A stretch of 64,000 nt of DNA, from NCBI GenBank assembly GCA_029855935.1, contig JAGSHN010000017.1, forward strand, positions 1-64,000. The letters run 5' to 3'. The notes below the pieces were generated by a model, which saw only the letters and a list, made by a program, of their open reading frames with translations, searched no databases and was not told the DNA's origin. This DNA is from Candidatus Thorarchaeota archaeon. Its GTDB lineage: Archaea; Asgardarchaeota; Thorarchaeia; Thorarchaeales; Thorarchaeaceae. The position numbers and the translations under genes were made by a program. Below are positions 9,194-27,827 of this stretch, piece after piece; the first letter of the stretch is position 1, and each line of letters opens with the position of its first letter.

Positions 9194-11422
9194 TCAGATC
9201 ACCCCCAGGGAGACGAACAGCATAATCAGGAACAGCACGAGGCCGAATATGACGACGGCCACGTAGTCGTTGATGCGGCCTGTCTGAATCTCCTGACTCT
9301 CATCAGATACTCGGTAGCCGGCAGTGCCAATACCCTCAGCGAGCCCGTCAACCACGTGGTCATCGAACCACCGGAGCCTTGTGGAGGCGCCCTTGGCCGC
9401 ATCTGCCGACTTGAAGTCGATGCCGTCGATGATGTGGTCATCAATACGCGCTCTGTACCAGTTGACGAAACGCAGGAACTGATAGAGAATCCAGTAGTAC
9501 AGCTCGTTGATGTACCACCTGTGGCGGAGGAACGTGTGGACCCTGCGCAACAGACCTCTCTCACCGACAACGTTGTTCGGCCGGTCAGCATTCTTGATGT
9601 AGAGTACGTAGCTGGGAACAGCACCAAGGAAGAGCGCGCCGACGGTGAGCGCAAACGGGAACAGCCCCGTGGTGAACTTCGCGACAATCATCTCGGTGAG
9701 GACCTCGGTCCACATCTCCATCGTCAGCGGACCCTCCTCTGCCAGTATCGCCTGCACGAACGGGTAGACCAGAAAGGCGACCACAGTGAAGGCCGCAAGG
9801 AGATACAGCGGGACCATCATGGCAGGACCGGGGTCGTGGGGTACTGCGTGATGATGTCCGGCCTCCTCATCTAGCGGACCGGTCTCCTCCTCACTGTGCT
9901 CTGTAGAGTGCGCAGCCTCAAACTTCGGCGGACCATAGAATGTCAGGCCCATCAGTCGGATACTGTAGAAGATGGTGCAGGCGGCGGCGAGGACCGCAAA
10001 GGCGAACAAGATCCACCCGAGAGTCTCGTGTAGGGCCAGCTCGTACGAGTACTCAATGATCGAGTCCTTCGACCAGAAGCCTGAGAACGGAGGAATACCG
10101 GAGAGGGCGAGGACACCGACCCACATCACCTTGAATGTCTTGGGCATGTACTCTTTCAGACCGCCCATCTTGGTGACGTATTTTGAGTGGATGGCGTGAA
10201 TGACTCCTCCCGAGGCGAGGAACAGCAGCGCCTTGAACGCACCGTGGCTGATGACGTGGAGTATTCCGGCCGCGAAGGCTGGCTCATAGTGTGAGAGGAG
10301 ACCGCCAGTGCCTATCGCCAGCATCATGTAGCCGAGCTGACTCAATGTTGAGAACGCGAGGATCTGCTTCAGCTCGTTGGAGACCATTCCCATCGTGGCT
10401 GTCATCAGAGCAGTGATTGCACCAATGATTGCAACGATCGTAAAGAATGACGACGCAGCCTCAATGCCTACGAGCTGAAGTGGTGAGAGGAGAGCCTCAC
10501 TGTGGGAGACCTCCGAGGCCGAGGCGATCGTGACGAGAAACCGTGCAGTGATGTAGACACCTGCCTTGACCATAGTCGCCGCGTGGATGAGCGCGGAAAC
10601 CGATGTCGGGCCAGCCATCGCCTCGGGGAGCCAGACCTGCAGCGGAAACTGACCGGACTTTCCGATGGCCCCTGCAAAGATCAGCAGGAATGTGGGCAGG
10701 ACAAGTCCCGTGGCGGCCAGCACCTGCCACCAGTTCTGATAGTTCTCGGCCATCAATGAGAACGAGAAGGTGCCGGTGAAGGCGTAGAGGACCAGAATGC
10801 CACCGAGCATAAAGGCGTCACCGATGCGCGTGACAATGAAGGCCTTCGTACCGCACTGCGTGTTGTATTCGCCCTCGGTCTCATATTGGAGCAGTGGATT
10901 GGAGTATTCAATGCCGTCAGGCTCCCTCTCCGGTGGATTTCTCTTGTCATTCCAGAAGCCGATCAGTCCGTAGGAACAGAAGCCCATTATCTCCCAGCCG
11001 ATAAAGGCGATGAGGAGGTTGTTGCTGATGACGAGTGTGAGCATCCCACCGCCAAAGACGAGCATCAGGAAGAAGAACCTGTCACGGTCCTCCTCACCAG
11101 CCATGTACTCTGTGGAGTAGACGTAGATGAGGAAGCACAGCGTGCTCGCGAGGACCGTCATGATGACGGACAGTGGGTCTAGGAGAACCTCGAAGTTCAG
11201 CCCGAGCGACGGAATCCACGGCCAGCTGGTGGGACCCTTAGGAGAACCTATGTCGTAGAGCAGCGACCACGCGAGGATCATTGTGACGCCCATGAACAGC
11301 GCTGGTGTCCAGTCTCGAAGACGGTCGCTGAAACGTCCAAATACGGGGACGAGCAGCGCACCCACGAAGGGCAGCACGAGGAGGAGATAATATGGTAGTC
11401 CGAACAGCATCTCTTGGCTCAC
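9194..11422 (-). CDS. nuoL: Complex I-like antiporter subunit L with elongated lateral helix
   Basis: WEIMGFCSYGLIGFW, GKSGQFPLQVWLPEAMAGPTSVSALIHAATMVKAG, FSGFWSKD, QTGRINDY. Confidence 0.93.
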   Translation of the reverse strand: MSQEMLFGLPYYLLLVLPFVGALLVPVFGRFSDRLRDWTPALFMGVTMILAWSLLYDIGSPKGPTSWPWIPSLGLNFEVLLDPLSVIMTVLASTLCFLIYVYSTEYMAGEEDRDRFFFLMLVFGGGMLTLVISNNLLIAFIGWEIMGFCSYGLIGFWNDKRNPPEREPDGIEYSNPLLQYETEGEYNTQCGTKAFIVTRIGDAFMLGGILVLYAFTGTFSFSLMAENYQNWWQVLAATGLVLPTFLLIFAGAIGKSGQFPLQVWLPEAMAGPTSVSALIHAATMVKAGVYITARFLVTIASASEVSHSEALLSPLQLVGIEAASSFFTIVAIIGAITALMTATMGMVSNELKQILAFSTLSQLGYMMLAIGTGGLLSHYEPAFAAGILHVISHGAFKALLFLASGGVIHAIHSKYVTKMGGLKEYMPKTFKVMWVGVLALSGIPPFSGFWSKDSIIEYSYELALHETLGWILFAFAVLAAACTIFYSIRLMGLTFYGPPKFEAAHSTEHSEEETGPLDEEAGHHHAVPHDPGPAMMVPLYLLAAFTVVAFLVYPFVQAILAEEGPLTMEMWTEVLTEMIVAKFTTGLFPFALTVGALFLGAVPSYVLYIKNADRPNNVVGERGLLRRVHTFLRHRWYINELYYWILYQFLRFVNWYRARIDDHIIDGIDFKSADAAKGASTRLRWFDDHVVDGLAEGIGTAGYRVSDESQEIQTGRINDYVAVVIFGLVLFLIMLFVSLGVI
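9344..9442 (-). repeat. 26-codon internal duplication in the NuoL amphipathic helix
   Basis: DDHIIDG (first Asp codon 9442-9440) and DDHVVDG (9364-9362) are exactly 78 nt apart; DNA gatgaccacatcatcgacggc vs gatgaccacgtggttgacggg. Confidence 0.8.
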
Positions 11423-11423
11423 C

Positions 11424-12935
11424 TCACGGAACTATGTTCAACAGGCCCTGCGTGGCCCCGGCGATGACGTGTACGGCGACATCTGGAAAGACACCGAAGA
11501 ACACAATCAGCGCACCGAGCAACACCATTGGAATTGTCATCGACCTCGGCGCGTCCCTCACCGACTCAAGGTTGGTCGGCAGCGGGCCAAGGAACACCTT
11601 CATCACGAAACGCAGCATATAGCCAGCACTGACGATTGTGCTGGATACGGCAAGAATAGACAGCACGAAGAACGGCATACTGCCAATTCCTGCAGGCCCG
11701 AGAAGAGCAGCCTGAAAGCCGCCATTGAACATCATCCACTCACTGGCAAATCCTGAGAGCGGTGGCACTCCAGCGATGCTGAACGCCCCAACAGCCGCTG
11801 TGAATGCAGTTACCGGCATCCTGTTGGAGAGACCTCCCATCTCTTCGATGTTTCGAGTCCCGGTCTCGTGAATCACCGCGCCGGCGGTCATGAAGAGCAG
11901 CCCCTTTGAGAAGGCGTGATTGATGAGATGGAACAGACCGCCCTGCAGGCCGTACGAGGCCATTACACCGAGAGCGAACAGGACGTATCCCATCTGCGAG
12001 ACAGACGAATACGCCAGCAGCCTCTTGATGTCCTTCTGTGCAAGCGCCATCAGACCGCCATAGAACATCGTGAGAACACCCAGCACGCTCACCCAGAACG
12101 ACAGGGCCTGCGCTGCGGCACCGAGCATGATCACTCCGAACCTGACGAGGGCGTATGCACCAGTCTCAATCATCGCACCTGACAGGAGTACGGACACTGG
12201 TGTCGGGGCCTCGGCGTGGACTGGCGGGAGCCACCAATGGATTGGAAACACCGCCATCTTGACGAGAAAGCCAGCTGCCAGGAGTATGAATATCAGCTTC
12301 ATAGTGCTCAGAGCCATTTCTGATGTGAGGATCACACCGATGTCGGTCATTACAAAGGAGCCGGTGATGGCGTACAGTAGAGCGAATCCCGCAAGGATGG
12401 CCAGCGCACCTGACTGAGTGTAGAGCCAGAACTTCATCGCCGTGCGCTTGCGGGTCTCTGGAATGCCCCAGAACAGAATCAGGAAGTACGACGGGACGAG
12501 CATCAGCTCCCAAGCCATGAAGAACTCCACAAGGTTGGTCGCCAGTGTGACCCACTGCATACCCATTATGAAGAACAGAAGGTTGGAGAAGAATGTCCCT
12601 CTGTTCTCTGTGTGGCTCGTGTAGCCGATGGCATAGATCACGGAGAGAAAACCCAGGATAACAACTGCAAACGTGATTGGGAACGCAACGCCGTCGAGTA
12701 GAAGACCAAAGCTGCCCAGCACTGAGGACCACTCGACGACCTCCATTATGGGCTCATTGAAGACGACTATGTGGTAGAATGACGGCAACATCAAGAGCAT
12801 TGACAGGCCGGAGAAGACGGCGGCTGCAGTGCCAGCACGTTGCTCCAATGCTCCACGAAAGATGTAGATGAACAGTGCGCCGAGGAACATCACTATCAGT
12901 GATAGTGACATCAATGAGAATCCACTCAACAGCAT
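11424..12935 (-). CDS. Second NuoM-like (M2; MrpD/HyfB-like) antiporter subunit
   Basis: AWELMLVPSY, KFWLYT, VKMAVFPIHWWLPPVHAEAPTPVS, DIKRLLAYSSVSQMGY, GFASEW. Confidence 0.88.
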   Translation of the reverse strand: MLLSGFSLMSLSLIVMFLGALFIYIFRGALEQRAGTAAAVFSGLSMLLMLPSFYHIVVFNEPIMEVVEWSSVLGSFGLLLDGVAFPITFAVVILGFLSVIYAIGYTSHTENRGTFFSNLLFFIMGMQWVTLATNLVEFFMAWELMLVPSYFLILFWGIPETRKRTAMKFWLYTQSGALAILAGFALLYAITGSFVMTDIGVILTSEMALSTMKLIFILLAAGFLVKMAVFPIHWWLPPVHAEAPTPVSVLLSGAMIETGAYALVRFGVIMLGAAAQALSFWVSVLGVLTMFYGGLMALAQKDIKRLLAYSSVSQMGYVLFALGVMASYGLQGGLFHLINHAFSKGLLFMTAGAVIHETGTRNIEEMGGLSNRMPVTAFTAAVGAFSIAGVPPLSGFASEWMMFNGGFQAALLGPAGIGSMPFFVLSILAVSSTIVSAGYMLRFVMKVFLGPLPTNLESVRDAPRSMTIPMVLLGALIVFFGVFPDVAVHVIAGATQGLLNIVP

Positions 12936-13367
12936 TCAACGAAACCTCCTGCCTCGCCATTCAAGCGGCTCGCGTTCCAGTGTCTCGATTCTCTCTGGGT
13001 CGTAGTGCAAGGCCTCACGTGACGGCTCGCTCAGGTCGACCACTGGAGTGTGGAACAGGGCATTGAACCGGCACGCCTCCACGCACAGGCCACAGAAGAT
13101 GCACCTCGTGTAGTCGAAGTAAAGGGCGGCGTCCTTCTCGTACTTGCGGTCGCTCTTGTCGATGCGGATGGCCACGACCGGGCACGCGCGGACGCACTGA
13201 CCGCACGCCGTACAGTTCTCTCGAATGTGTATGTGGCGGCCACGTGTGCGCTCCGGGTACTCGCGGTCCTCAAAGGGATAGAAGTACGTGAAGGGTCGTG
13301 AGAACGTCTGACGCACGATGTGTTTCAGCACGCGAAAGATATCGCCCAGAACTCTAATCATTCCCAT
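12936..13367 (-). CDS. nuoI: Complex I-like 2x[4Fe-4S] subunit I
   Basis: YPFE, RTRGRH, CTACGQCVRACP, DYTRCIFCGLCVEAC; start at ATG 13367 after a GGAGG. Confidence 0.92.
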   Translation of the reverse strand: MGMIRVLGDIFRVLKHIVRQTFSRPFTYFYPFEDREYPERTRGRHIHIRENCTACGQCVRACPVVAIRIDKSDRKYEKDAALYFDYTRCIFCGLCVEACRFNALFHTPVVDLSEPSREALHYDPERIETLEREPLEWRGRRFR

Positions 13368-13371
13368 CTCT

Positions 13372-14529
13372 CTATCCTCCTCCTGCGAGAATGCCAGCGA
13401 GCCCCGGCACATACGCCAGCACGAGCAGCGCGACTATGATGTTCAGCATTGACAGCGGGAGGAGATACCTCCAGCTGTACTTTACTATCTGGTCCTGTCG
13501 AATCCTGTAGAAGGACGACGTAACGATGATCATCCCGAAGAGGACAACAAGGAACTTGAGGAAGAAGTTCAGGAACGGCGGAAAGCCGGGAACGCCGTAC
13601 TCGCCGCCGAAGAAGAGCGCCACGATAAGCGCGGAGTAGAGGACCTGCTTGGCGAACTCGGCAAAGTAGGTGAGCGTGAAGTAGACTCCCGAGAGCTCGG
13701 TCCTCCAGCCGAATATGACCTCCGAGTCCGCCACAGGGGCGTCAAAGGGCACCAACCCTATGCTGATGACTGCGGAGACGAGGAAGGTGACAAAGCAGAC
13801 GGGCAGCAGAACGACGTACCAGAGGTGCGTCTGGGCCTGCGATATCTGCAGCACGCTGAGCGAGCCTGCAAGAAGAGCGGGACCAACTGAGGACACTATG
13901 AGCGGTATCTCGGCCGCGAACTGGTTACTTGCCGCCCGAAATCCACCGACTAGGGTGTACTTCGAGCCGCTTATCCAGCCCGTCAGCAAAGAGATGACAG
14001 GCACGGCCGTCAGGAACGCGAACACGAGCACGAGGCTGACGGAGAGGTCGGTTATCACCCACTCGCTGGTCCACGGTACAAAGGCGAAGGGCGTGAGCAC
14101 GACTAGCAGTAGGAAGGACGGGAGAAGCCGATACATCCACCGCTTCGCTCCACGCGGGATGATTATCTCCTTCGAAATGAGCTTGATTGCGTCGGCGAAG
14201 ATCTGAAGGCCTCCGTACTTTCCGATGTGGAAAGGACCACGACGAGCCTGTACACGGCCCCACACCTTTCGTGTGAACCACACGTCAAAGATTATGAGCA
14301 TCAGGACGAAGACGAGACCGGGGAAGACTATTGCCTTGAACAGCAGCAGCCAGTTGTCTAGCGCGAGATTCCACGCCCAGACAAAGACACCCCAAGCCCA
14401 GTTGAACACGCCTACTGCCAGCGTGTATACCCAGACAATGATACCATGGATCCAGTCCGGGATTCCACGCAGCCAGCCAATGATGTCAATGTTGTCGAAC
14501 AGTTGCAACAGCAAGGCGTTCAATGTCAT
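13372..14529 (-). CDS. nuoH: Complex I-like membrane subunit H
   Basis: RKVWGRVQARRGP, GLQIFADAIKLISKE, PFDAPVADSEV, RIRQDQ; start taken at ATG 14529. Confidence 0.92.
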   Translation of the reverse strand: MTLNALLLQLFDNIDIIGWLRGIPDWIHGIIVWVYTLAVGVFNWAWGVFVWAWNLALDNWLLLFKAIVFPGLVFVLMLIIFDVWFTRKVWGRVQARRGPFHIGKYGGLQIFADAIKLISKEIIIPRGAKRWMYRLLPSFLLLVVLTPFAFVPWTSEWVITDLSVSLVLVFAFLTAVPVISLLTGWISGSKYTLVGGFRAASNQFAAEIPLIVSSVGPALLAGSLSVLQISQAQTHLWYVVLLPVCFVTFLVSAVISIGLVPFDAPVADSEVIFGWRTELSGVYFTLTYFAEFAKQVLYSALIVALFFGGEYGVPGFPPFLNFFLKFLVVLFGMIIVTSSFYRIRQDQIVKYSWRYLLPLSMLNIIVALLVLAYVPGLAGILAGGG

Positions 14530-14537
14530 CCCTCCGT

Positions 14538-15674
14538 TCACCGGTCCCACCATCCTGGGTACGGGTCCAGACTGCCGAACACGACAATGAAGTCAGCAAA
14601 CGTCGACCCGGGGACCAGATGCTTCAGGCTGTAGTAGGAGGCGAAGCACGGCCCGCGAATCTTCGCTCGGTACGGTGTCTGCGCCTTCTCTGTCGTCTTG
14701 AGCCAGACGGTCGTCACTCCCCGTGTCCCCTCGACCCGGCCATAGGCCTCTCCGGCCGGGAGACGGTTCGTCTTGGCCCGCGCCTTGGGGTCGACGATAG
14801 GCCCCTCAGGTATCTGCGGCAGCAGCTGCCGGATTATGTTGATGGATGTCTCGACCTCAAGGAATCTCTGGACCATCCTGTCGTACGCATCGCTCTGACC
14901 GGGATGGTCCGGATTATCAACAACGGGCACCTCCCAGTCGACAAGGTCATACGCCAAGTTGAGGTCAGGCCAGTCCTTGCGAAGATCCATAGGCACGCCA
15001 CAGGCCTTGATGTTCGGTCCACTGAGGCCCCACCTGAGAGCATCCTCGTAGCTGAATAGTGCAATGCCCTTGGTCCGCATTCTGAAGGTCGGGCTGCGGA
15101 GAAGCATGTCTTTGAACTTTGGCAGATGCTGTTCCAGTCGCTGTAGCGCCCTGTCAAGCTTCTTGAGGACCTTCTCATTGAAGTCGTACCTGACGCCACC
15201 GGGAGTGCTGAAGGAGACTGCGTGCCGTGAGCCGGTCAGCTCCTCGAACGTGTCCAGGAAGAACTCTCGGTCCACCCATGGCCATAGTGTCATAGCAAAC
15301 AGACCGAGCTCTGCCGAGAACTGACCCCACCAGAACTGTAGCGAGTGTATCCTGCTGGCCTCCATCATTATCGTTCTGAGGACCTTCGCACGTTCGGGCA
15401 CCTCCACGCCCGCGATCTGCTCCACTGCGCTGATGTACGGGTACTCGGCAAGAAACGCCTCAAGCATACACATCCTCTCAAGTACGAGAGGACCCTGTTT
15501 GAACGTACGAAACTCAAGGACCTTCTCTGCGGAACGATGGAAATAGCCAGCGTGAGGGTCACACTCCACAATGAAGTCGCCCACCACCGTGAGCTTGGCG
15601 GCCCAACCGTGGGCCGACACATGCTGGGGCCCGAACCACATCTCAACAGCTTCGTCGCGTATGTCGGGGCTCAT
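14538..15674 (-). CDS. nuoD: Complex I-like subunit D (non-hydrogenase large subunit)
   Basis: FGPQHVSAHG, GYFHRSAEK, PGGVRYD, GLSGPN, PYRAKIRGP; both NiFe CxxC motifs are absent (RMCMLE; DPYPGWWDR). Confidence 0.9.
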   Translation of the reverse strand: MSPDIRDEAVEMWFGPQHVSAHGWAAKLTVVGDFIVECDPHAGYFHRSAEKVLEFRTFKQGPLVLERMCMLEAFLAEYPYISAVEQIAGVEVPERAKVLRTIMMEASRIHSLQFWWGQFSAELGLFAMTLWPWVDREFFLDTFEELTGSRHAVSFSTPGGVRYDFNEKVLKKLDRALQRLEQHLPKFKDMLLRSPTFRMRTKGIALFSYEDALRWGLSGPNIKACGVPMDLRKDWPDLNLAYDLVDWEVPVVDNPDHPGQSDAYDRMVQRFLEVETSINIIRQLLPQIPEGPIVDPKARAKTNRLPAGEAYGRVEGTRGVTTVWLKTTEKAQTPYRAKIRGPCFASYYSLKHLVPGSTFADFIVVFGSLDPYPGWWDR

Positions 15675-16195
15675 TCCTTGTTCGCCTCCTGTCTGCGTGG
15701 TCTTGGCTGCGGTAGTCCAGACTCGGCCAGCCTCCTCCGGTCTGGCTGGAAGCTCTTCCTGAGCGGATACTTCCCGACCAGCTCATCAGGCAGAAGCAGT
15801 GGTCTCAGGTCGGGATGGCCTCTGAAGCCGATCCCGAACATCTCGTGAGTCTCCCGTTCGTGCCACTCAAGGCCTGGGAATATGTCACAGACCGAGTCAA
15901 TCTCCGGCTCCTCACCCTCCAGCTCGACCCTGAGCTGCACAAGTACTCTGATATCGTGTGACCAGAAGTAGTAGATAAGCTGATAGCGATCATCCTGTAG
16001 GTCGACGCCGAACATAGACTCAGGTAGAGCGTGAGGGAGCAGCTCATCGACGGACTTGACGACATCACGAATCATCCCTGCAGGTACTGTGAGTTCTGCG
16101 GTCTGGCCCTCGATCTTGTGGGCCTCAACACCGGGATGACGACGCATCAGCTCGGCCGCTACCTCAGACGGTGTAGTCGGTGGCGCCAACCTCAC
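15671..16195 (-). CDS. nuoC: Complex I-like subunit C
   Basis: WHERETHEMFGIGFRGHPDLRPLLLP...YPLRK. Confidence 0.92.
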   Translation of the reverse strand: MRLAPPTTPSEVAAELMRRHPGVEAHKIEGQTAELTVPAGMIRDVVKSVDELLPHALPESMFGVDLQDDRYQLIYYFWSHDIRVLVQLRVELEGEEPEIDSVCDIFPGLEWHERETHEMFGIGFRGHPDLRPLLLPDELVGKYPLRKSFQPDRRRLAESGLPQPRPRRQEANKE

Positions 16196-16509
16196 GACAC
16201 CTCCTCCGTTCTAGTGACCGGGATCCCCAGGTCCACGGTCCTGTATCTGCGATGGTAGAGAAGCATCAGGACCATTGCAAGGGCGGTCTCGGCTGCGGCC
16301 ACTGCGATGACTAGGATGACAAGCGCCTGGGCCGTGAATGTGAAGAATGGTCCGTACAACGCCAGCGCAATGAGGGCGATGTTGACCCCATTGGCCATGA
16401 TCTCGGCACTGATCAGTATCCTGATGAGATTGCGCTTGGAGACCATCCCGTAGGCACCCATACCAATCAGTATGAGGGCCAGCACCATGTACCAGCTCAG
16501 CGGAACCAT
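16192..16509 (-). CDS. nuoK: Complex I-like subunit K
   Basis: RNLIRILISAEIMANG, AVAAAETAL with both conserved Glu; 3 TM. Confidence 0.9.
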   Translation of the reverse strand: MVPLSWYMVLALILIGMGAYGMVSKRNLIRILISAEIMANGVNIALIALALYGPFFTFTAQALVILVIAVAAAETALAMVLMLLYHRRYRTVDLGIPVTRTEEVS

Positions 16510-17163
16510 CTACTCAACCTCCTTCTCCTCCTTAACGTCACGTGCCTCAAGGACTGGCATCCCAGATGTGGCGCTCTCGGGCTCACTCTCCTCAGGGATC
16601 GGGAGGGAGAAGTCTTCCGTTCTCGGACGAAGCTGTTCCTCCTTCTCCATCCTTATGATCGCGACAGAACCGACTAGCCCAACGAAGAGAAGCATAGCAA
16701 TTATCTCGAGATAGACAGCGTGCGTTCCCCAGAGCCACTCAGCAAGTCCCTCGAGACTCTGCGACAACGGGATGTGTTCAGGCGGGATGCTCTCCTGCCA
16801 TGGAAACAGCAGCGCGATGAGCGCTGATATGACTACAACCGAGATGGAGAGCACCAAGCCCACCTTCCGCATTCGGGGTGAATGTAGCACTTCCAGTGTC
16901 GAGTCCTGTGCCCTTGGGATGAGTAGTACACCAAAGATGATCAGTGCTGTTATGCCACCAGTGTAGATGGCTATCTGGAGCCCTGCGACGAACGGGGCTT
17001 CTAGCAGGATGAATATCCCTGCAACCCCCGTGGCCATAAAGCCGAAGAAGAACGCAGCATAGACGATGTCCCTATGCTCGAGCGCCAAGTAGGCAAGGAC
17101 TATCACCACACCCGCGATGAGCAGGAACTCGATATTCTCGAAGAGTATCTCAGCCTCTTGCAT
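16510..17163 (-). CDS. nuoJ: Complex I-like subunit J
   Basis: LEAPFVAGLQIAIYTGGI motif, about 5 TM; start at ATG 17163. Confidence 0.88.
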   Translation of the reverse strand: MQEAEILFENIEFLLIAGVVIVLAYLALEHRDIVYAAFFFGFMATGVAGIFILLEAPFVAGLQIAIYTGGITALIIFGVLLIPRAQDSTLEVLHSPRMRKVGLVLSISVVVISALIALLFPWQESIPPEHIPLSQSLEGLAEWLWGTHAVYLEIIAMLLFVGLVGSVAIIRMEKEEQLRPRTEDFSLPIPEESEPESATSGMPVLEARDVKEEKEVE

Positions 17164-17170
17164 CGTGAAC

Positions 17171-17605
17171 TCATCCCTCCGAATGCAACCCCGTGGCCTG
17201 CTCCTTGGCAGCCTCATAGAGGGCTACCACCTCGGGACCCGTCATCTGCGCCTTTGGTAGAATCTTCAGAACAAACATCACAGCAGCCATTATGACCGCA
17301 GCAAAGACTACGACCTGCCACACAACGAACACCGAGGTCCTCAGTGCTGAGACCGCATACAGCCACATGAAAGCGCCCATCACGTCCACTACGAGAAACA
17401 GTACCGTGTAGATGATGTAGCTGTACGGAAAGCTGATCCGAGCCGGACCGAGAGGCTCCTCGCCACATTCGTAGGTGGATGTCTTCTCCGAGTTCTGGAG
17501 GACATGCGGACGCAGGACCCACGATGCAAGCAGCATCACGATTACGAGTGCTGTGACAAGGCCCATCCATAAGAGTAGAGGCACAAAGTCGATGAACAGT
17601 CGCAC
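17171..17605 (-). CDS. nuoA: Complex I-like subunit A
   Basis: EKTSTYECGEEP, LFLVVDV; 3 TM. Confidence 0.9.
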   Translation of the reverse strand: MRLFIDFVPLLLWMGLVTALVIVMLLASWVLRPHVLQNSEKTSTYECGEEPLGPARISFPYSYIIYTVLFLVVDVMGAFMWLYAVSALRTSVFVVWQVVVFAAVIMAAVMFVLKILPKAQMTGPEVVALYEAAKEQATGLHSEG

Positions 17606-20250: not shown

Positions 20251-20820
20251 CTACTCGGATTCGTCCCTCTTGCCCGTCTCGGCAGTCGACTCCTCAGTCC
20301 TCTCTATAGGCTCTCTCGCTTCTCCCTCTTTCTCACTGCCTCTCGTCTCCTCCGGCTCCTCCACGAACACCTCAACAGCCGAACGCACTGCTGGGCGTCC
20401 AGCGTACGAGAGTCTTGAGTAGTCAAGTAGGCCTGGCGTGACCGCATCCTCAAGAGGTGGTATCATTGCCAGACCGCCTGCCGTGACCAGAGCGCCGATG
20501 ATCCCCCAGAAGACGAGTCCAAGGCCACCGCCCCACTCGGCCGGCACAGACATAGAAAAGATTGCGTAGAACAGTGATGCCACAACGGAGAAGCCGAACA
20601 TCGTCGTCTTGGCCTTGCCGCGAACTGGTCGAAGGTATCCCACGTAGAGGAAGACCATCACCGGTGGCAGACCCAGCACGGGGAGGAGCACTGCGGTCAG
20701 GATGTTGAGCGTGATCGTACCAGTCAGCCACAGATAGCCAAAGCTGAAGTAGAACGCGCCCAGTATGGCCATTCCAAGCCAGACCATGCAGTAGTAGTCG
20801 GTGTCCTCTCGTAGATGCAT
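20251..20820 (-). CDS. 4-TM membrane protein with acidic C-tail, co-oriented downstream of the FAD-NuoB fusion
   Basis: Four hydrophobic helices; 22-nt gap with GGAGG after the fusion gene. Confidence 0.75.
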   Translation of the reverse strand: MHLREDTDYYCMVWLGMAILGAFYFSFGYLWLTGTITLNILTAVLLPVLGLPPVMVFLYVGYLRPVRGKAKTTMFGFSVVASLFYAIFSMSVPAEWGGGLGLVFWGIIGALVTAGGLAMIPPLEDAVTPGLLDYSRLSYAGRPAVRSAVEVFVEEPEETRGSEKEGEAREPIERTEESTAETGKRDESE

Positions 20821-20842
20821 CTCTCTATCTCCTCCCTGTGGT

Positions 20843-22783
20843 CTATCTCAGGAAGCCCATGGCATCCTGGTTCTCGTATTTCATCTGCCAGTGCGTCGTG
20901 CCAGCACGGATCTTGTTCTGAAGTATCAGATGGGCTCGTATGAAGTCTGACGGCTTCGGCGGGCACCCCGGTAGATAGACATCCACAGGAACGACCTCCT
21001 CGGGGTCCTTGACAAGAGAGTAGCCGTCCCAGAACATGCCGCCGCTCGCAGCACACTGACCGAACGATATCACAAACTTTGGCTCAGGCATCTGCTCGTA
21101 GATTCGGCGCAGCCTGGGCGCCATCTTCTTCGTCAGCGAACCGGATATCCACAGCACATCAGTCTGACGAGGACCAAACAGCGGAAGCATACCGAACCGC
21201 TCAGTGTCCCACCGTGGAGCCACAGCGGCGGACCCCTCGACCATGCAGCAGCCCAGACCGAACTGTACTGGCCAGGGACTGTGAGCACGACCCCATCGGA
21301 GAAGCCACTTGATCGGTGGCAGGTTCTGCAGCCACTTCAACACGATTGGCCCCATCCGGCCGAAGCCGTTCCTCAGCAGATCGTAGCCAAGCCACATGAA
21401 GTACTTGCCGACTCTGAGTACAAGAGGCAGCCAGTAGGCAAACACCTTCCCCGGGTTCGCCACCTCATTGGGGTCGAACTTGAGCTTGGCGGCACGAATC
21501 CGTGCAAGGCGCCTCTTGCCGAAGTACTGTGGAGCATAGTTCGCCAGCCAGATGCCGGTCGAATGAACGTGACCCCCGTGCCTCTGTGCAATCTTGAAGA
21601 CCACGAAGCTCTGAACCCAAGATAGCATGAAGCCGAACCGCCGCTCGTCCTCAAGGAAGTAGCCCATTAGCGTGACCCCGTTCTTCGATGTCACGTAGCC
21701 GTCCATGCCTGCCCGCGCTGAGGCCTGCTCGAACTGAAAGTCGTCGAGGATGAGCATCAGATTCTCCAATGGCGCAAAGGCCTGTCCGACGACCAGCGAC
21801 GGGCCGAGCTTCTTGATCTTCATTGGATAGAAGCGCTGCTCCCACTCGTGTTCCGCAACGTGCTCGTCGTAGACTTTGCCCTTCAGCTCCTTCGCCACCC
21901 TGCGTACAACCTCGAGGCCCTCCTCGGTCTCCTCATCGGAACCATCGTACGCAAAGAGCGCGACACAGTGATGAACGGGATAGGGATAGGGGCCCGGGCC
22001 CTCCCAGATCTCCTTCTTGAGGTCGACGTACTTGCTCTCCTTGAACTTGATTGTGTGTGGGAGCGGACCCTCCTCCAGAATCTTCTCGATTGCAAATGTC
22101 ATCAGGTAGTTCTCAGGAAAGCTGACGACGATGCACTTGATGGGGGTGAGAGCTTTGACCTTGAGCGTGACCTTGGTGATTATCCCCAGAATGCCCTCGG
22201 TGTCGCAGAACAGGTCGGTATCGCGGCTGCGCACAATTCGCCCATTGGGGAGGACCACCTCGACCTCCTCGACGTTCTCGTTGATGTTGCCGTACTTCAG
22301 CGAGCCGATACCGTCACCACCCTGAGCCACCCAACCTCCAACCGTGGCCGAGATTCCCGATGAGGGATAGGTGCGCAGGTCCAGTCCCTGACGATTGAGC
22401 TCAAACTGCAGGTGCGCCCAGGAGATTCCGGGCTCCACTGTGACCGTCAGGCCCTCGGGGTCGACACTCAACACGCGATCCATCCTACGCATATCAACAA
22501 TGATGCCGCCCTTTCTGGGAATCGCACCGCCGTAGCCTGAGGTGCCAGCGCCACGTGGGACAATTGGCACGCGCTCCTCATTGGCGAACTTGAAGAGCGC
22601 GACAATCTCGTCCACCGACTCGGGCTGCACAAGTGCATCAGGTTTGTTGTTCATCAGCCAGCCGACCTGCTTGGGCAGTGAACCTACATCCATACTGTGG
22701 ATGTGAAGCTCGTACTTCTCTGTGATCAGCCGGTCACCGAATATCGCTTTCAGGCGCTCCAATTGATCCTTCTTCAGTCCCAT
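20843..22783 (-). CDS. FAD-linked oxidoreductase (VAO/GlcD family) fused to a C-terminal NuoB domain
   Basis: N-part PRGAGTSGYGGAIP, ATVGGWVA, TEGILGIITKVTLK, DPNEVANPGKV; C-part GLGCCMVE, PRQTDVL, QMPEPKFVISFGQCAASGG, VDVYLPGCPP. Confidence 0.9.
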   Translation of the reverse strand: MGLKKDQLERLKAIFGDRLITEKYELHIHSMDVGSLPKQVGWLMNNKPDALVQPESVDEIVALFKFANEERVPIVPRGAGTSGYGGAIPRKGGIIVDMRRMDRVLSVDPEGLTVTVEPGISWAHLQFELNRQGLDLRTYPSSGISATVGGWVAQGGDGIGSLKYGNINENVEEVEVVLPNGRIVRSRDTDLFCDTEGILGIITKVTLKVKALTPIKCIVVSFPENYLMTFAIEKILEEGPLPHTIKFKESKYVDLKKEIWEGPGPYPYPVHHCVALFAYDGSDEETEEGLEVVRRVAKELKGKVYDEHVAEHEWEQRFYPMKIKKLGPSLVVGQAFAPLENLMLILDDFQFEQASARAGMDGYVTSKNGVTLMGYFLEDERRFGFMLSWVQSFVVFKIAQRHGGHVHSTGIWLANYAPQYFGKRRLARIRAAKLKFDPNEVANPGKVFAYWLPLVLRVGKYFMWLGYDLLRNGFGRMGPIVLKWLQNLPPIKWLLRWGRAHSPWPVQFGLGCCMVEGSAAVAPRWDTERFGMLPLFGPRQTDVLWISGSLTKKMAPRLRRIYEQMPEPKFVISFGQCAASGGMFWDGYSLVKDPEEVVPVDVYLPGCPPKPSDFIRAHLILQNKIRAGTTHWQMKYENQDAMGFLR

Positions 22784-23067
22784 ACGGTATCACGCCCGAG
22801 GTCAATGTGGGAGCCTTCGAAGACTCAGTTCCTGTCAGGCCTAGACCGTGAATAAAAAGATAGCGAGTCGGCAATAGTCGTCCGATTGTGCAGATACTCA
22901 GCAGGGTCATCCCCTCAGATGGGGCCCTGTCATAGGACACGATATTCAAACAAGTGGTTGAATAAAGATATAATGGAGCAGTCGTCGCATTAGGAAAACC
23001 TATTTACGTGGGCAAGGGCCGCTTTCCCCGGTCAAAGAACGACAACAGGTCAAAGAGGCAGGCCCCA

Positions 23068-24294
23068 ATGCACTTCGAGATGCTTGAACAGTACAACCTT
23101 CAGGACATGGCCTTCATCTGTGCCCAGTGCAGCTTCTGTCAGGTGGGTCACGGTGCGTGCCCGACCTACAAGGTCAAGCGCCGGGACAGCTACTCAGGCA
23201 AGGGCAAGATGATCATCGCACGAGCGCTACTTCAGGGTAGGCTCTCACCCAGCGAGGCACTGGAGGGTCTTCGCGATGCCGTGTTCGGATGCACCCTCTG
23301 TGGCGGATGTGAGGAGGTGTGTCAAGTAGACATACCCTTTGTCCAGATCTACCAACTTCTGCGTGGTGAGTTCCTCAAGCTGAACCTCTGGCCGGAGCAG
23401 CTAAAGATGATGAAGAAGACCCTGATCAAGACACGGAACGTGCAGGGCCAGCCGAACATCGACCGTGTGGAGGGATGGTCATACTGGCATCCCGATGAGG
23501 ATGCGCTCTTGGAGAAAGTGGGGCAGCCTGCGGAGACCGGGTTCTTCGTCGGATGCGGTTCATCATTCCGCGGTATTGCCATTCAGGCGACGATTGCCAC
23601 AACTCTGATTCTCGATGACGCCGGCATCGAATACACGCTTCTTGGAGAGGACGAGTGGTGTTGCGGAGCCCCGCTGATCATGACTGGCGACTTCGAGGGC
23701 GCGAAGGAGTTCGCTCTACACAACATCGAGGAGTTCCGCAAGCTCGGTGTGAAGCGGATTGTGACAAATTGTCCAGGCTGCTACAAGATGTGGCATCACG
23801 AGTATCACCAGCTTCTCGGCATTGATCACGAATTTGAGATCGTGTACGGTCCCGTACTCTACGCCAAGCTAGTAGAGGAGGGCAAGCTGGAGGGCAAGAT
23901 TAAGGACCTCCCGGTCTCGGTCACATTCCACGACCCGTGCGATGCTGGGCGCAACAGTGGCATCTATGAGGAGCCCAGAGTTGTACTGAAGAACATACCC
24001 GGACTCAGATTTGAGGAGCTTCCTCACAACCGGGAGAACTCGTACTGCTGCGGTTCAGGAGGTGTTCTGAGAGCACAGGACGAGGAGTTCTGTCTGAAGA
24101 TAAACGAGCTGAAAGTACGCGACATCGAGCAGACGGATGCGGACTGGGTGATCTCCGCCTGCCCGTCATGTGTGGACTTCATCAACACAGGACTACCAGA
24201 GGCCGGGTCTGAGAAGAAGTCCAAGGACCTCGCCGTGCTGCTTGCAGAGGCTCTCGGACATACCTGGGACGGACTCGACGACGTCTACGGCTGA
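23068..24294 (+). CDS. GlcF/HdrD-like FeS oxidoreductase (2x 4Fe-4S plus 2 CCG domains)
   Basis: CAQCSFC..ACP, CTLCGGCEEVC, FVGC/EWCCG/CPGC, FHDPC/YCCGSGG/ACPSC; start at ATG 23068. Confidence 0.9.
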   Translation: MHFEMLEQYNLQDMAFICAQCSFCQVGHGACPTYKVKRRDSYSGKGKMIIARALLQGRLSPSEALEGLRDAVFGCTLCGGCEEVCQVDIPFVQIYQLLRGEFLKLNLWPEQLKMMKKTLIKTRNVQGQPNIDRVEGWSYWHPDEDALLEKVGQPAETGFFVGCGSSFRGIAIQATIATTLILDDAGIEYTLLGEDEWCCGAPLIMTGDFEGAKEFALHNIEEFRKLGVKRIVTNCPGCYKMWHHEYHQLLGIDHEFEIVYGPVLYAKLVEEGKLEGKIKDLPVSVTFHDPCDAGRNSGIYEEPRVVLKNIPGLRFEELPHNRENSYCCGSGGVLRAQDEEFCLKINELKVRDIEQTDADWVISACPSCVDFINTGLPEAGSEKKSKDLAVLLAEALGHTWDGLDDVYG

Positions 24295-25331
24295 GGCGCC
24301 GGGGGAGGTCGCAGCAGAGTCCTGACTGCCAGCCCTACAAAGACGAGTAGCATCACAGCAACGAGAACGTATACCAGTAGTGGCGTCCTCATGTCAATCA
24401 CAACATAGCCAACCGTCAGGTACAGTCCCGTCAACAGATGGGTCATAATCGTCCCGGCGTTCGCAGGTATCATTCTCAGGGGCTCATCGTAATGTCGTCG
24501 TGCAGTCCTGATTGCAATGGCCGCGATAGGAACCGTGAGCAGACCATAGAGCTGCGTCCACGGAACAAGGCCAACGAACGTGAACAACACTATGACAGCA
24601 TAGGTGACGATCATCAGACCCGCATACACAGCTGATGCTCGCCTCCTACCCAGACGCACTACAGCCGTGTACTTGCCAGCAGCCCTGTCGCCCTCCATAT
24701 CTGGAAACTCATTGATGAACAACACCAGAGAGATGAGTAGTGCCACCGGGAGCGAGGCGAAGACTGGTTCCCAGTCAAGGGCCTGTGTCTGCACGAAGAA
24801 GGCTCCAAGCGTCATCAGGATGCCAAAGTTCAGCCCGATGAATATCTCTCCAATCCCCCGACTCACAAGCCTGACTGGGGGTGCTGTGTAGAAGAAACCA
24901 GATGCTGCACCAATCAGCCCAAGGACAACTATCACCCAACCGAGGTGGAGATAGAGGTAGAAGCCGATTGCCACGGCAATGCCGAAGAAGACGAATGACC
25001 CCGCGAGGACCTCGCCGGGACTCAACAGGCCCTCCTGTATCACCCGGCTGCCTCCACTGAAGGGTCGAATGAAACCCTCGTTGACGTTATCGGCGCCACT
25101 CTTGTAGTCGAAGTAGTCATTGGCGATGTTTGCGCCGAGATGCAGACAGGCGGCCGCCACAAGAGTGAGGAAGAAAAACCAGAGGTTCAGGCCGTGCGTC
25201 CGCTCCCAAGCAATTGCGGTTCCTAGCAGCACGGGAACGAGTGACGCCGTCAAGAAACTCAACCTCATCTCACGTATCCAGATTCGAAGCCTCCCGGGCT
25301 TCGGCTCTACTGGGGCTCTCTCGCCAGTCAT
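24285..25331 (-). CDS. menA: 1,4-dihydroxy-2-naphthoate prenyltransferase (MenA/UBIAD1-type)
   Basis: NIANDYFDYKSGAD, PFSGGSRV, FYTAPP, GIGE, NEFPDMEGDRAAGKYT. Confidence 0.88.
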   Translation of the reverse strand: MTGERAPVEPKPGRLRIWIREMRLSFLTASLVPVLLGTAIAWERTHGLNLWFFFLTLVAAACLHLGANIANDYFDYKSGADNVNEGFIRPFSGGSRVIQEGLLSPGEVLAGSFVFFGIAVAIGFYLYLHLGWVIVVLGLIGAASGFFYTAPPVRLVSRGIGEIFIGLNFGILMTLGAFFVQTQALDWEPVFASLPVALLISLVLFINEFPDMEGDRAAGKYTAVVRLGRRRASAVYAGLMIVTYAVIVLFTFVGLVPWTQLYGLLTVPIAAIAIRTARRHYDEPLRMIPANAGTIMTHLLTGLYLTVGYVVIDMRTPLLVYVLVAVMLLVFVGLAVRTLLRPPPAPQP

Positions 25332-25544
25332 TGTGGGTCGACGGAGCAGCAGGCGGGAAGAATAAAAGATTGATGGAACAGGGCCGGCATAGTAACGCAT
25401 TCGGGGTCACACCGCGCACGATCCCCTGGGCCTACACCAAGAGACAATGCCCTTCAGGGCGGATTCCACATTGTCCTCAGGACAAGTACTTTAAGAGGCG
25501 GTCGTCACGTAGCACTGTCGCCTGTTATCCGGAGAGGTAGCGTC

Positions 25545-26612
25545 ATGTCCGGCAGAGAGATGTCGACAGACAGGGATTCTCGCACCGAGTGCGACCAGCG
25601 CGACACGAGTCTCGCTGCCGGTTCCACAGGCCTGCTCACAATCGATGATCTCACCGCCGACGAGGAGTTCGGAGCAATAATATCGGCTATCAACACGGCG
25701 ATGGACGAGTTTGTTCAGAACCTATACGGAGAGCCTGCCTCACTCTATGAGGCGGCCAGACACCTGCTTGTTGCCGGGGGCAAGAGGCTCCGCTCTCTGA
25801 TTGTCCTCTTGGCGACACAGGCGGTCGGAGGTGACATTGAGGACGCATTGCCGTTCGCTGTAGCAATGGAGCTGGTGCAGACCGCCAGCCTTCTTCACGA
25901 TGACGTGATTGACGACGACGTCCTACGGCGAGGTGTCGAGACCGCACACAGAAAGTTCGGGACCAGAATTGCAATCCTCGCGGGAGACCTTCTCGTTGCA
26001 GAGGCGATGAGCCTGATTGGAGAGAGGGCGACTCCAGAGCTCCTCGCCATGATAGGAAAGGCGGGGATAATGCTGTGTGAGGGCGAGGCATCCGACTTGC
26101 TGATGGAGATCACTGATAGCGAGTCGGTCAGTGTGAGACGCTATCTGGCAATGGCGGAGAGAAAGACCGCATCACTTCTGCGGGTAGCGGCAGGTGTCGG
26201 GGCAGTGGTCGGAGGTGGTACGACAGAGCAGCGCGACGCTCTGATGGAGTACGCTCGGAAGATTGGTCTGGCATTCCAGATTCGTGACGATGTTCTGAAT
26301 CTGACATCAACTCCCGATGTGACAGGCAAGTCGGTCCTCTCAGACCTGAAGTGGAAGACCAGCAACTACGTGGTGATCCACTGCCTCGAACACTGCAGTC
26401 AGCCTGTTCGCGAGGAGTGCCTGAGGGCACTCGGATCCAACTCGTATGAGGACGTTCTCCGTGTCCTGGAGGAGTCCGGTTCCATAGCGCACGCGAATGA
26501 GGTGGCGTGGCGCTTGGCACGTGAGGCAAAGGCCGTCCTGAGAGGCGCAGACCTGCAGAAGAAACATCTTCTTGAGAGGCTCGCTGACTTTGTCGTCCTC
26601 AGGGCGCACTAG
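25545..26612 (+). CDS. trans-polyprenyl diphosphate synthase, probably medium/long chain
   Basis: GGKRLR, FARM TASLLHDDVIDDD-x2-RRG, KTASL, FQIRDDVLN. Confidence 0.9.
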   Translation: MSGREMSTDRDSRTECDQRDTSLAAGSTGLLTIDDLTADEEFGAIISAINTAMDEFVQNLYGEPASLYEAARHLLVAGGKRLRSLIVLLATQAVGGDIEDALPFAVAMELVQTASLLHDDVIDDDVLRRGVETAHRKFGTRIAILAGDLLVAEAMSLIGERATPELLAMIGKAGIMLCEGEASDLLMEITDSESVSVRRYLAMAERKTASLLRVAAGVGAVVGGGTTEQRDALMEYARKIGLAFQIRDDVLNLTSTPDVTGKSVLSDLKWKTSNYVVIHCLEHCSQPVREECLRALGSNSYEDVLRVLEESGSIAHANEVAWRLAREAKAVLRGADLQKKHLLERLADFVVLRAH

Positions 26613-26627
26613 GAACGGGACATGGTC

Positions 26628-27827
26628 TCAGAGAAGAAACATCAAAGCGCGGAGAAGAGTGCGGGAGGCAATGTCGACCGGTAGCGGGAGCCGGCAACGT
26701 ATAAGTTGTTCCAGCAGCCTGGTCCCAGCCAGACGCATGGTGACCTCCGTGACCGCATCCGTCGTCATCGCCTTGTCGGCAATGTGTCTGATGGACAGGG
26801 CTGTGTAGAGCTCACGGCCGAACTCCTGTTTCCACCCCTTCTCGTAGGCGCTCAGTGGGGTCCCGAACTCAAGATGGTTGACGATACTCTCGGCGGCTAT
26901 CTCACCGCCAATCAGCGCTGTGGGGATGCCACCGCCATTGGAGGCCATCACGTGACCTGCGGCGTCGCCGACAAGCAGTACACCTTCGTCCGAGTATGTT
27001 CGCTCGACGGGTCCATCAACAGGGATGAGTGCACCAATCTGTCGGACTACACGACCGCCCCTCAGACGTCGGGCCACAAAGGTATGGCTCAGGATGAACC
27101 GGTGCAGGTAGCGACGGGGTGGAACGCCCGGAGCGGCAAAGGCGGGGCGCAGCCCAAGTCCCACATTGGCCTCAGAGGGGCCCCTCGGAATCACCCAAGC
27201 GTACCCGCCTGGGGCCACAGAAGAGCCAAAGAACATTTCGACGACAGAGACGTCTGTGTCGACATCCGCAAGAGTCACCGAGGCGGATTGGCTCAGTTGG
27301 CTTGAGGGGTCTTTGTACTCCACCCCGATTGAGCGTGCCACCACTGAGACCGGTCCATCAGCGCCCACGACTACGCGTCCTCTTATCTCGCTGATACCGT
27401 CGGGTGTACGCACCAGGACAGTATTGTCCCTGTTCCTCCTGACAACCGTGTTGCACAGTCTCAGCTCGGCACCAGCATCCTCAGCAACCGTGACGAGAAA
27501 TGGGTCGAACCTCGCGCGGTCGATGATATTGGCGGAGAACCGGAACTCGTAGCGTCGGCCTCGAGGCGAGATGAGTCGGATCGTGCGCGTCCTGTCGAGA
27601 ATAAGGTGGCGTGGGACATCCGTCAGTCTGACGCCTCTTGGCGAGCGGGGGAACAGGTCCCCCATCTCAGATGGAGTGGGTAGCAGCTCGCCACAAAGGA
27701 CAGGCTCGCCGAGGGCTCTCCTTCGCTCAAGAAGGATCGTAGAGAGACCACGTCCTGCTGTACCAGCAGCCACAGTGGCGCCTGCTGGCCCTGCTCCAAC
27801 AACAACGACATCAAACGTCTCAGTCAC
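26628..27827 (-). CDS. Geranylgeranyl reductase family flavoprotein
   Basis: VGAGPAG, GADG, PGGYAWVIP, LVGDAAG, NGGGI. Confidence 0.9.
   Translation of the reverse strand: MTETFDVVVVGAGPAGATVAAGTAGRGLSTILLERRRALGEPVLCGELLPTPSEMGDLFPRSPRGVRLTDVPRHLILDRTRTIRLISPRGRRYEFRFSANIIDRARFDPFLVTVAEDAGAELRLCNTVVRRNRDNTVLVRTPDGISEIRGRVVVGADGPVSVVARSIGVEYKDPSSQLSQSASVTLADVDTDVSVVEMFFGSSVAPGGYAWVIPRGPSEANVGLGLRPAFAAPGVPPRRYLHRFILSHTFVARRLRGGRVVRQIGALIPVDGPVERTYSDEGVLLVGDAAGHVMASNGGGIPTALIGGEIAAESIVNHLEFGTPLSAYEKGWKQEFGRELYTALSIRHIADKAMTTDAVTEVTMRLAGTRLLEQLIRCRLPLPVDIASRTLLRALMFLL

Follow-up and report, generated by a model that had tools for sequence, protein, structure and literature searches.

A GlcD-like flavoprotein fused to the NuoB subunit of a complex I homolog in the Thorarchaeota

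Homologs of respiratory complex I swap their input modules, with NuoEFG, FpoF, ferredoxin-docking subunits, hydrogenase and formate dehydrogenase serving in this role in different complexes. Our analysis concerns a 64,000-nucleotide stretch of DNA from a Candidatus Thorarchaeota archaeon (assembly GCA_029855935.1, contig JAGSHN010000017.1, positions 1 to 64,000), hereafter called the window. Here, a gene located on the minus strand at 20843..22783 encodes a single chain of 646 aa (plus stop), in which a GlcD-like flavoprotein is fused to NuoB, the subunit that carries the iron-sulfur cluster N2. The fusion is genuine and conserved, and was found in one family of Thorarchaeota. Through this conserved arrangement, which has apparently not been described previously, complex I carries a second redox enzyme. 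The full-text literature searched, in which the coverage of key Thorarchaeota papers is incomplete, contained no description of a GlcD-NuoB fusion, and within that coverage the remark in the initial annotation that the architecture is unfamiliar from characterized enzymes holds. As far as this literature goes, a dehydrogenase covalently fused to the N2 subunit is a new redox module on a complex I homolog.

The 150 C-terminal residues of the fusion resemble NuoB, Nqo6 and PSST (NDUFS7) in family score, in the tandem cysteine motif and in two further cysteines, whereas the addition of a 450-aa flavoprotein at the N-terminus, the location outside the core operon and the partnership with a NuoD that lacks the quinone-site tyrosine set it apart from these subunits. 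Likewise, a VAO-type FAD domain and a partner with two 4Fe-4S motifs and two CCG domains are shared with the glycolate dehydrogenase GlcD-GlcF and with single-chain flavoprotein-HdrD enzymes such as YdiJ, the D-2-hydroxyglutarate dehydrogenase of E. coli, but the subfamily to which the fusion belongs lacks the His/His/Glu site of these enzymes, the C-terminal position is taken by NuoB, and the CCG protein is encoded by a separate gene. In the Methanomassiliicoccales, an Fpo-like 11-subunit complex has reportedly been proposed to work with HdrD. As is said of that complex, the one encoded in the window is a complex I homolog without an input module, linked in the genome to an HdrD-type protein and with ferredoxin as the presumed low-potential partner, but it differs in the covalent attachment of a flavoprotein to NuoB, in its four antiporter modules, in the adjacent MenA-like genes and in the lack of a methanogenesis context. 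A bacterial “2M” complex I is said to contain a second NuoM-like subunit, so that both systems would have four antiporter-like subunits. In the window, these are four PF00361 proteins, including a NuoL of 742 aa with a 78-nt-spaced repeat, but the system is archaeal, lacks NuoEFG, has a flavoprotein-fused NuoB and follows the gene order A-J-K-C-D-H-I-M'-L-M-N. In plants, L-galactono-1,4-lactone dehydrogenase (GLDH) binds complex I assembly intermediates at their membrane arm, on the opposite side of the membrane, and functions in assembly. Both GLDH (PDB 7a24) and the flavoprotein described here belong to the VAO family and are attached to complex I, but GLDH is a separate protein, whereas the flavoprotein forms one covalent chain with NuoB and comes with an Fe-S partner of its own.

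The initial annotation had described one uninterrupted 646-aa open reading frame (ORF) with about 450 aa of flavoprotein, followed by a complete NuoB with the tandem CC motif at 21245-21250 and the other two N2 ligands, and these features are borne out by the open frame and by the domain matches. The Pfam domains FAD_binding_4 (residues 48-185, 3e-43) and FAD-oxidase_C (residues 218-447, 2.6e-12) were identified in the FAD dehydrogenase domain (residues 1-447, 21443..22783), and a third domain, Oxidored_q6 (residues 513-617, 5.6e-24), in the NuoB core (residues 498-646, 20846..21292). Furthermore, residues 492-630 passed the curated cut-offs of the NuoB models of NCBIfam (NF005012, 184.7 against 116; TIGR01957, 175.4 against 142.7), and the top matches of the fused NuoB part among solved structures were the Nqo6/PSST subunits of complex I (about 1e-44). 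The N2 ligands correspond to Cys512 and Cys513 (nt 21245-21250), Cys577 (nt 21053-21055) and Cys607 (nt 20963-20965), and adjacent cysteines in NuoB are a complex I trait (PMC7684303). The sequence thus strongly supports the identification of the C-terminal part as an N2-carrying NuoB, for which cluster binding and assembly are predicted.

We also considered the possibility that the fusion is an artifact, or that it exists as two proteins in practice, through an assembly or frameshift error, an internal start or proteolytic separation. One genome (G023, C5:93253-95186) carries the fusion in two overlapping frames, and the window sequence contains an internal methionine at residue 477 (MGPIVLKW), at which the initial annotation suggested that translation could restart. 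However, the break in G023, the sole genome of this kind, falls at residues 432-435, within the FAD domain and away from the junction, and reflects either a frameshift error or a pseudogene. Met477 is replaced by Ile, Val or Ser in the orthologs printed and the linker appears to be under selection, and an internal restart was rejected because the residue is not conserved. The fusion is present as a single stop-free frame in 51 of the 87 species genomes of the class, with most of the other matches being cut by contig ends. In the independent Logan assembly of the probable source run, which is a hydrothermal vent metagenome, the junction and the whole of 20700-23200 have the identical sequence, with a depth of about 23 and no variants. 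Reads across the junction and full-length homologs had been proposed as checks in the initial annotation; the assembled source reads revealed no stop or frameshift at the junction, and the homologs are almost always one gene. An artifact, or two separate proteins, is therefore in our opinion extremely improbable, although the chain may yet be cut by proteolysis. The stretch itself was found only in the probable source DNA run, and no RNA run listed contains it.

A collection of 5.8 billion proteins yielded about 45 clusters with this three-domain architecture, at 73-87% identity and with lengths of 644-667 aa (646 aa in most). With few exceptions, these public sequences are labeled Thorarchaeota, and they are named only “NuoB” or “hypothetical.” Across 26 orthologs, identity averages 74% in the FAD domain, 77% in the linker and 86% in NuoB, and the four N2 cysteines are invariant across 27 fusion orthologs. 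The full architecture was present in only one cluster among 1.84 billion representatives at 50% identity, which is why the fusion appears to be confined to the Thorarchaeota lineage. A 533-aa protein with a NuoB domain (P0212) was dismissed as an intron-containing eukaryotic gene.

The two parts are joined by a segment of 50 residues (448-497, 21293..21442), which follows directly upon the end of the FAD domain (NPGKVF, residue 447). The initial annotation had described an amphipathic linker at roughly 21300-21440; its position and amphipathic character stand, but rather than a mere linker this is a conserved, structured segment, the last part of which is homologous to the N-terminal helix of NuoB. 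The segment is rich in aromatic and basic residues, has a hydrophobic moment of up to 0.58 and is of constant length in the seven fused orthologs printed. AlphaFold modeled a single long helix at residues 451-486 with low confidence, as compared to a pLDDT of 85-96 for the FAD domain. From about residue 474, the fusion aligns with the N-terminal helix of NuoB proteins of solved structure, namely NDUFS7 of Drosophila and, from its residue 24, Nqo6 of T. thermophilus, and this helix precedes the WGR...FGL.CC core.

Unfused orthologs of 498-499 aa (59% identity) were identified in the genus g14, in which the segment is kept and the proteins end in FPPLKWLRNR, where the NuoB core would begin. In the g14 genome GCA_964648855.1, for example, a 499-aa unfused ortholog is located at 10001-11500 of locus L009, and its terminal FPPLKWLRNR corresponds to the beginning of the NuoB N-terminal helix. 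The g14 locus contains genes for a geranylgeranyl-reductase (GGR) family protein, polyprenyl synthase, MenA-like, HdrD-like and flavoprotein genes, and no nuo operon. A maximum-likelihood tree was built for the HdrD-like protein, with the HdrD portions of the single-chain relatives as the root. Here, g14 nests among the fusion-bearing genera, as a sister to g9 (98/98) within a 99/100 clade that excludes g1, although this is a gene tree and not a species tree, and the g14 branch is long. Thus, the unfused form in g14 is most simply explained as a secondary loss of the NuoB core and of the operon. Unfused flavoproteins related to the fusion terminate in tails that are amphipathic or transmembrane, which favors a link to the membrane.

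The fusion is followed, on the same strand, by a nuo operon with the gene order A-J-K-C-D-H-I-M'-L-M-N. As the initial annotation had noted, nuoB is missing from this operon, in which the genes A, J, K, C, D, H and I are joined by four that are antiporter-like; nuoEFG were not found in it either. The fused NuoB is the only tandem-CC NuoB in the 97.3%-complete genome. A second complex I-like set is encoded by nuoA-B-C-D-H-I at C8:48629-52776 (L007) and by K-L-M-N at C28:167322-172726. The presence of RICGIC and DPCYSC motifs in the “NuoD” of this second set, and of CxxC in its “NuoB,” indicates a group-4 [NiFe] hydrogenase with complex I architecture, as has been described for Asgard archaea (bioRxiv 10.1101/2024.07.04.601786; PMC11291895). 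The second NuoB was rejected as a partner for the operon, since it is a CxxC hydrogenase small subunit beside a true [NiFe] large subunit.

The gene order provides further information. In the complete relative L010, the HdrD-like gene and the fusion are arranged divergently, and the fusion is followed by a gene that we refer to as orfX, by a 116-aa ORF on the opposite strand and by nuoA-J-K-C-D-H-I-M'-L-M, while in L014 the fusion and orfX are directly followed by nuoA. Furthermore, the genera g1-g12 hold both the fusion and the NuoD type of this operon. This NuoD type was found in none of the genera g13-g17, which have the hydrogenase-type set only, although related genomes are not independent samples and the co-distribution should be read as a pattern and not as a statistic. 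Taken together, the sole tandem-CC NuoB, the operon without nuoB, the conserved order of the fusion, orfX and nuoA, and the genera shared with NuoD strongly support the hypothesis that the C-terminal part of the fusion serves as the B subunit of the adjacent operon. The suggestion in the initial annotation that the fusion is the likely source of N2 is supported by the same evidence, namely the tandem cysteines, the synteny and the matching genus distribution of NuoD.

An operon without nuoB was observed not only in L010, but also in a sister clade of about 50% identity (49-51% for NuoD), in which the gene order is J-K-C-D-H-I-M-L-M-N. A stand-alone NuoB that is 62% identical to the fused domain adjoins nuoA on a short metagenome contig. 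The sister operon and the stand-alone NuoB suggest that the fusion is likely a Thorarchaeota innovation, made on a complex whose nuoB already sat outside the operon.

Turning to the flavoprotein, the top sequence matches of the FAD domain among solved structures were LctD of the lactate dehydrogenase/Etf complex of A. woodii (5e-28) and the mouse D-lactate dehydrogenase. The fold of the model, as compared with Foldseek, was most similar to mouse LDHD (TM 0.84-0.85), followed by LctD (0.81) and alkyl-DHAP synthase (0.65-0.70), and a search of the ESM Atlas with the FAD domain yielded generic matches only. The glycine-rich motifs of the FAD-binding domain show little or no variation throughout the subfamily. 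What is missing is a His/His/Glu site, the residues of which we take to be metal ligands, as in the structures of LDHD and D2HGDH. GlcD of E. coli contains HAGDGNMH and GEHG, and YdiJ contains GHV..LHV and GEHG, but the fusion has TSKNGVTLMGY and HSTG, and in the alignment with these two proteins as positive references neither histidine was found in its cap domain and the Glu position is deleted. The triad is absent from all aligned members of the subfamily, including the stand-alone proteins and the single-chain relatives of 870-1050 aa in which a flavoprotein is fused to HdrD. Likewise, a scan of 264 homologs for the GHxGDGNxH and GEHG motifs gave zero matches, a result that is informative only together with the GlcD and YdiJ references. 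The subfamily instead shares the motifs EWE.RFYPMR.K.LGPS and L.DER.

The scores of the domain are also far below the GlcD equivalog cut-offs (TIGR00387, 154.1 against 567.9; NF008408, 104.5 against 897), and on the basis of these low scores and of the absent triad we have not classified the protein as a D-lactate or glycolate dehydrogenase. It may work in the manner of these enzymes, by transferring electrons from FAD to an Fe-S partner, but it is not a canonical D-2-hydroxyacid dehydrogenase. Paralogs have been annotated as “D-lactate dehydrogenase,” a name that is not supported by the missing metal site. The closest flavoprotein relatives outside the Thorarchaeota are proteins of 870-1050 aa, in which a flavoprotein of the same type is fused to the same HdrD-like module (35-41% identity). 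At least seven further flavoprotein/HdrD-like paralog pairs or fusions are located on contigs C4, C10, C13, C16, C20, C27 and C29 of this genome, and the pair on C4 lies near a molybdopterin oxidoreductase (91762-92982).

An HdrD/GlcF-like Fe-S protein of 408 aa is encoded on the plus strand (23068..24294), divergently from the fusion. The ORF opens at a GTG codon at 23008, yet 28 of the 29 orthologs align only from Met21 (nt 23068), and with this start the intergenic region spans 284 nt (22784..23067), within which two AT-rich boxes could be read in the sequence. Pfam identified CCG in two stretches (1.7e-37) and Fer4_8, and 18 of the 34 invariant columns in an alignment of 40 sequences are cysteines, with four in each of the two ferredoxin-type 4Fe-4S motifs and five in each of the two CCG domains. 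The gene and the fusion occur in the same genera, and the two are usually adjacent in head-to-head orientation. A complex of the HdrD-like protein with the FAD domain was predicted with a score of 0.87, as compared to 0.01 for the best of three controls, with at least 95% of the contacts shared between runs and a pLDDT of at least 90 for the partner. Among solved complexes, 58 of 80 attained this score, as did 2 of 110 mismatched pairs, although the counts are rough because custom alignments were used, and passing the mark is no proof of binding. In the predicted interface, the ferredoxin-like domain of the HdrD-like protein is placed on residues 79-81, 142-145, 318-330 and 379-381 of the FAD domain, among which are conserved motifs specific to the subfamily. 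The shared genera, the adjacency of the genes, the single-chain flavoprotein-HdrD relatives and the complex prediction strongly support the interpretation of the HdrD-like protein as a dedicated partner of the flavoprotein, with which it is predicted to bind. An HdrD paralog on contig C14 (100538-101755) is located beside an SdhA/FrdA-like gene (~102098-102460), in an arrangement resembling that of thiol:fumarate reductase.

The top matches of NuoD among solved structures were MbsL of MBS, the membrane-bound sulfane sulfur reductase (2.8e-57), closely followed by Nqo4 of T. thermophilus (2.7e-55). In Nqo4, the site for the quinone head group is defined by H38 and Y87 (PMC7684303). His22 of the NuoD protein corresponds to H38 and is kept, while Cys69-Met70 take the place of D86-Y87 in Nqo4 and of C85-V86 in MbsL, and the same residues were observed in L010. 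With the cysteine kept, the histidine present, the tyrosine absent and adjacent cysteines in NuoB, the acceptor site is non-canonical, and NuoD looks intermediate in its sequence features between MBS and the quinone-type complex I. When compared with MBS of Pyrococcus furiosus (PDB 6u8y), the R-x-C-x-x-E motif of NuoD keeps the cysteine that equals C85 of MbsL, and the equivalent of Y87 is missing (PMC7684303). In contrast to MBS, which has a Mrp-type membrane arm, the operon encodes a Nuo-type arm with the lateral helix of NuoL, and the tandem cysteines are present together with the H38-type histidine, which is absent from MBS.

In the window, as in many relatives, the neighborhood of the HdrD-like gene includes genes for a MenA-like prenyltransferase (24285..25400, minus strand; TIGR00751, 117.8 against a cut-off of 102), a polyprenyl diphosphate synthase (25545..26612, plus strand) and the GGR family protein (26628..27827, minus strand). 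These prenyl genes make a lipophilic carrier likely, despite the non-canonical acceptor site. Neither cytochrome bd nor NrfD was found in the genome, which contains three SdhA/FrdA-like flavoproteins, one of which is located beside an HdrD paralog.

How might the fused dehydrogenase and the complex work together? With a confidence somewhat short of even, we favor the hypothesis that a flavoprotein/Fe-S dehydrogenase is tethered to the Q-module and that its carrier is shared with the pump. The flavoprotein and the HdrD-like protein would then constitute an ordinary peripheral-membrane “substrate : lipophilic carrier” oxidoreductase, in which electrons would flow from the substrate to FAD, to the 4Fe-4S and CCG clusters and on to a prenylated carrier. 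The fusion would park the dehydrogenase where the N-terminus of NuoB comes close to the membrane and to the entrance of the carrier cavity, such that the dehydrogenase and the pump could share one local carrier pool, which the complex would link to ferredoxin via NuoI and N2. We favor an uphill flow from carrier to ferredoxin, driven by the proton motive force, in view of the four antiporter modules in an operon without NuoEFG, the lack of cytochrome bd and of NrfD-type quinol oxidoreductases in the genome, and a separate ferredoxin-type [NiFe] hydrogenase complex. Such a flow would enable electrons from an organic substrate of fairly high potential to reach ferredoxin, H2 or CO2 reduction. 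In this scheme, we infer the direction, the carrier, the substrate and the path between the module and the complex.

Several observations weigh against a shared carrier pool. The hypothesis depends on the N-terminus of NuoB being near the carrier entrance and the membrane interface, as in solved complex I. The Q tunnel is formed by Nqo4, Nqo6 and Nqo8, with the entrance on Nqo8 (PMC3750175), and the location of the NuoB N-terminus goes beyond that source. In the AlphaFold model, both the linker and the NuoB part were of low confidence, and the packing of the domains is unreliable. With Met70 at the position of Y87, a normal quinone site is not assured. Moreover, MqnA/D, MqnC, MenD and a true MenB were not found in the 97%-complete genome; these gaps suggest an uncharacterized prenylated carrier or a scavenged head group. 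The absence of the metal triad weakens the thermodynamic argument for the direction, and two dehydrogenases with a shared diffusible carrier have no obvious need for a covalent link.

Both the covalent link and the strict co-occurrence are more easily explained if the module must dock on the complex. An alternative hypothesis is that the FAD domain, together with the HdrD-like protein, takes the place of NuoEFG as a directly wired input module, with electrons passing from the substrate to FAD, the HdrD clusters, the NuoI clusters, N2 and the acceptor. This would make it a proton-pumping “organic substrate : carrier” oxidoreductase whose dehydrogenase is a covalent component of the Q-module. 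The operon lacks any input module, and a flavin followed by an Fe-S chain is what such a module needs, in agreement with the predicted placement of the ferredoxin-like domain on the FAD domain. By our own arithmetic, the predicted linker helix of ~36 residues at ~1.5 Å per residue would extend over ~54 Å, which is enough to reach up the short peripheral arm. However, in solved complex I the N-terminus of NuoB is placed at the membrane interface, a long way from the exposed cluster of NuoI, the linker with its aromatic and basic residues resembles a helix on the membrane surface, and the unfused relatives bear membrane tails. Furthermore, if the potential of the couple is near -190 mV, as for 2-hydroxyacids, it would be hard to drive five pumping modules toward a menaquinone-like acceptor. 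Direct wiring is in our view rather unlikely, and so is the wider reading built on it. If true, this would be the first pump of the complex I type with its input enzyme covalently bound in the Q-module. The oxidation of an organic substrate, by a non-NADH flavoprotein with an HdrD-like chain of clusters, would be coupled to ion translocation via four antiporter modules, and the NuoD/NuoB pair would represent an evolutionary intermediate between MBS and the quinone-reducing complex I, in the archaeal phylum closest to the eukaryotes.

The electrons could also leave the complex through the fusion, from ferredoxin via NuoI, N2 and the carrier site to the HdrD-like protein and FAD, where a disulfide or an organic acceptor would be reduced, in the manner reportedly proposed for the Fpo-like complex and HdrD of the Methanomassiliicoccales. 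Such an output module would be consistent with a complex of 11 core subunits that has no input module and an HdrD homolog beside it, as well as with the best NCBIfam match of the HdrD-like protein, the thiol:fumarate reductase subunit TfrB (168.6 bits, below the cut-off), while a NuoD without the quinone tyrosine but with one hydrogenase/MBS-type cysteine kept (PMC7684303) suggests an unusual acceptor. We nevertheless find this improbable, since VAO/GlcD-type flavoproteins normally oxidize their substrates, the MenA-like genes point to a lipophilic carrier and none of the evidence here indicates coenzyme M or B chemistry; the model for the Methanomassiliicoccales is itself unproven. Even less probable, in our view, is that the FAD domain is a non-catalytic appendage of NuoB with a structural, assembly or regulatory role, comparable to GLDH or to NDUFA9, which is situated by the Q site. 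In favor of this, the domain lacks the canonical metal site, and GLDH, which is in the match list (PDB 7a24 chain z), provides a precedent for a VAO-family protein on complex I. However, the strong match to FAD_binding_4 (3e-43) and the near-invariant glycine-rich motifs speak against such a role, the absence of the triad in the whole subfamily, including stand-alone and HdrD-fused members, is a family trait rather than a sign of decay, and the domain is 74% conserved among the fusions, with the dedicated Fe-S partner kept.

Thorarchaeota are usually modeled as simple fermenters or acetogens. A tethered dehydrogenase that shares its carrier with the pump would link the oxidation of organic-acid-type substrates, a lipophilic carrier, ferredoxin and H2, and would thus revise the bioenergetic model for these archaea. 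If functional, the fusion would also provide a natural construct for studies of electron entry and exit in a minimal 11-subunit complex I, and the features of NuoD that are intermediate between MBS and complex I bear on the evolution of quinone reduction.

The genes of the operon, all on the minus strand, were assigned as follows: nuoA (144 aa, 17171..17605; PF00507, 6.7e-19), nuoJ (16510..17217; PF00499), nuoK (16192..16509; PF00420), nuoC (15671..16195; PF00329), nuoD (14538..15674), with the non-canonical acceptor site, nuoH (13372..14553; PF00146 at residues 80-375, with an N-terminal extension of ~65 aa), nuoI (12936..13412), with two 4Fe-4S motifs, and the four antiporter-like genes M' (11424..12935), nuoL (742 aa, 9194..11422), nuoM (7672..9192) and nuoN (6176..7675), which all match PF00361, with further support from NCBIfam. 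A 118-aa ORF at 17214-17570 was considered as an alternative nuoA, but it has no family match and an implausible composition, and it overlaps the real nuoA in another frame; it is spurious.

The orfX gene (20251..20820, minus strand) starts 22 nt after the stop codon of the fusion, is preceded by GGAGG, and encodes a predicted membrane protein of 189 aa with an acidic C-terminal tail. It matched no known family, with a best score of 0.87 in the ESM Atlas, which is below the useful range. A homolog is located directly downstream of the fusion in six of six other loci, and orfX is a candidate for a lineage-specific extra subunit. The gene order of the window differs only in two genes on the plus strand, which are inserted between orfX and nuoA (18464-20199) and were not found there in L010 and L014. 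These encode a DUF3782/PD-(D/E)XK protein with a FEAMDRR repeat and a hydrophobic ORF of 213 aa. Finally, nuoL contains a 25-nt direct repeat (9340-9442; 76% identity, 78-nt spacing), which fits a duplication of 26 residues in the lateral helix.

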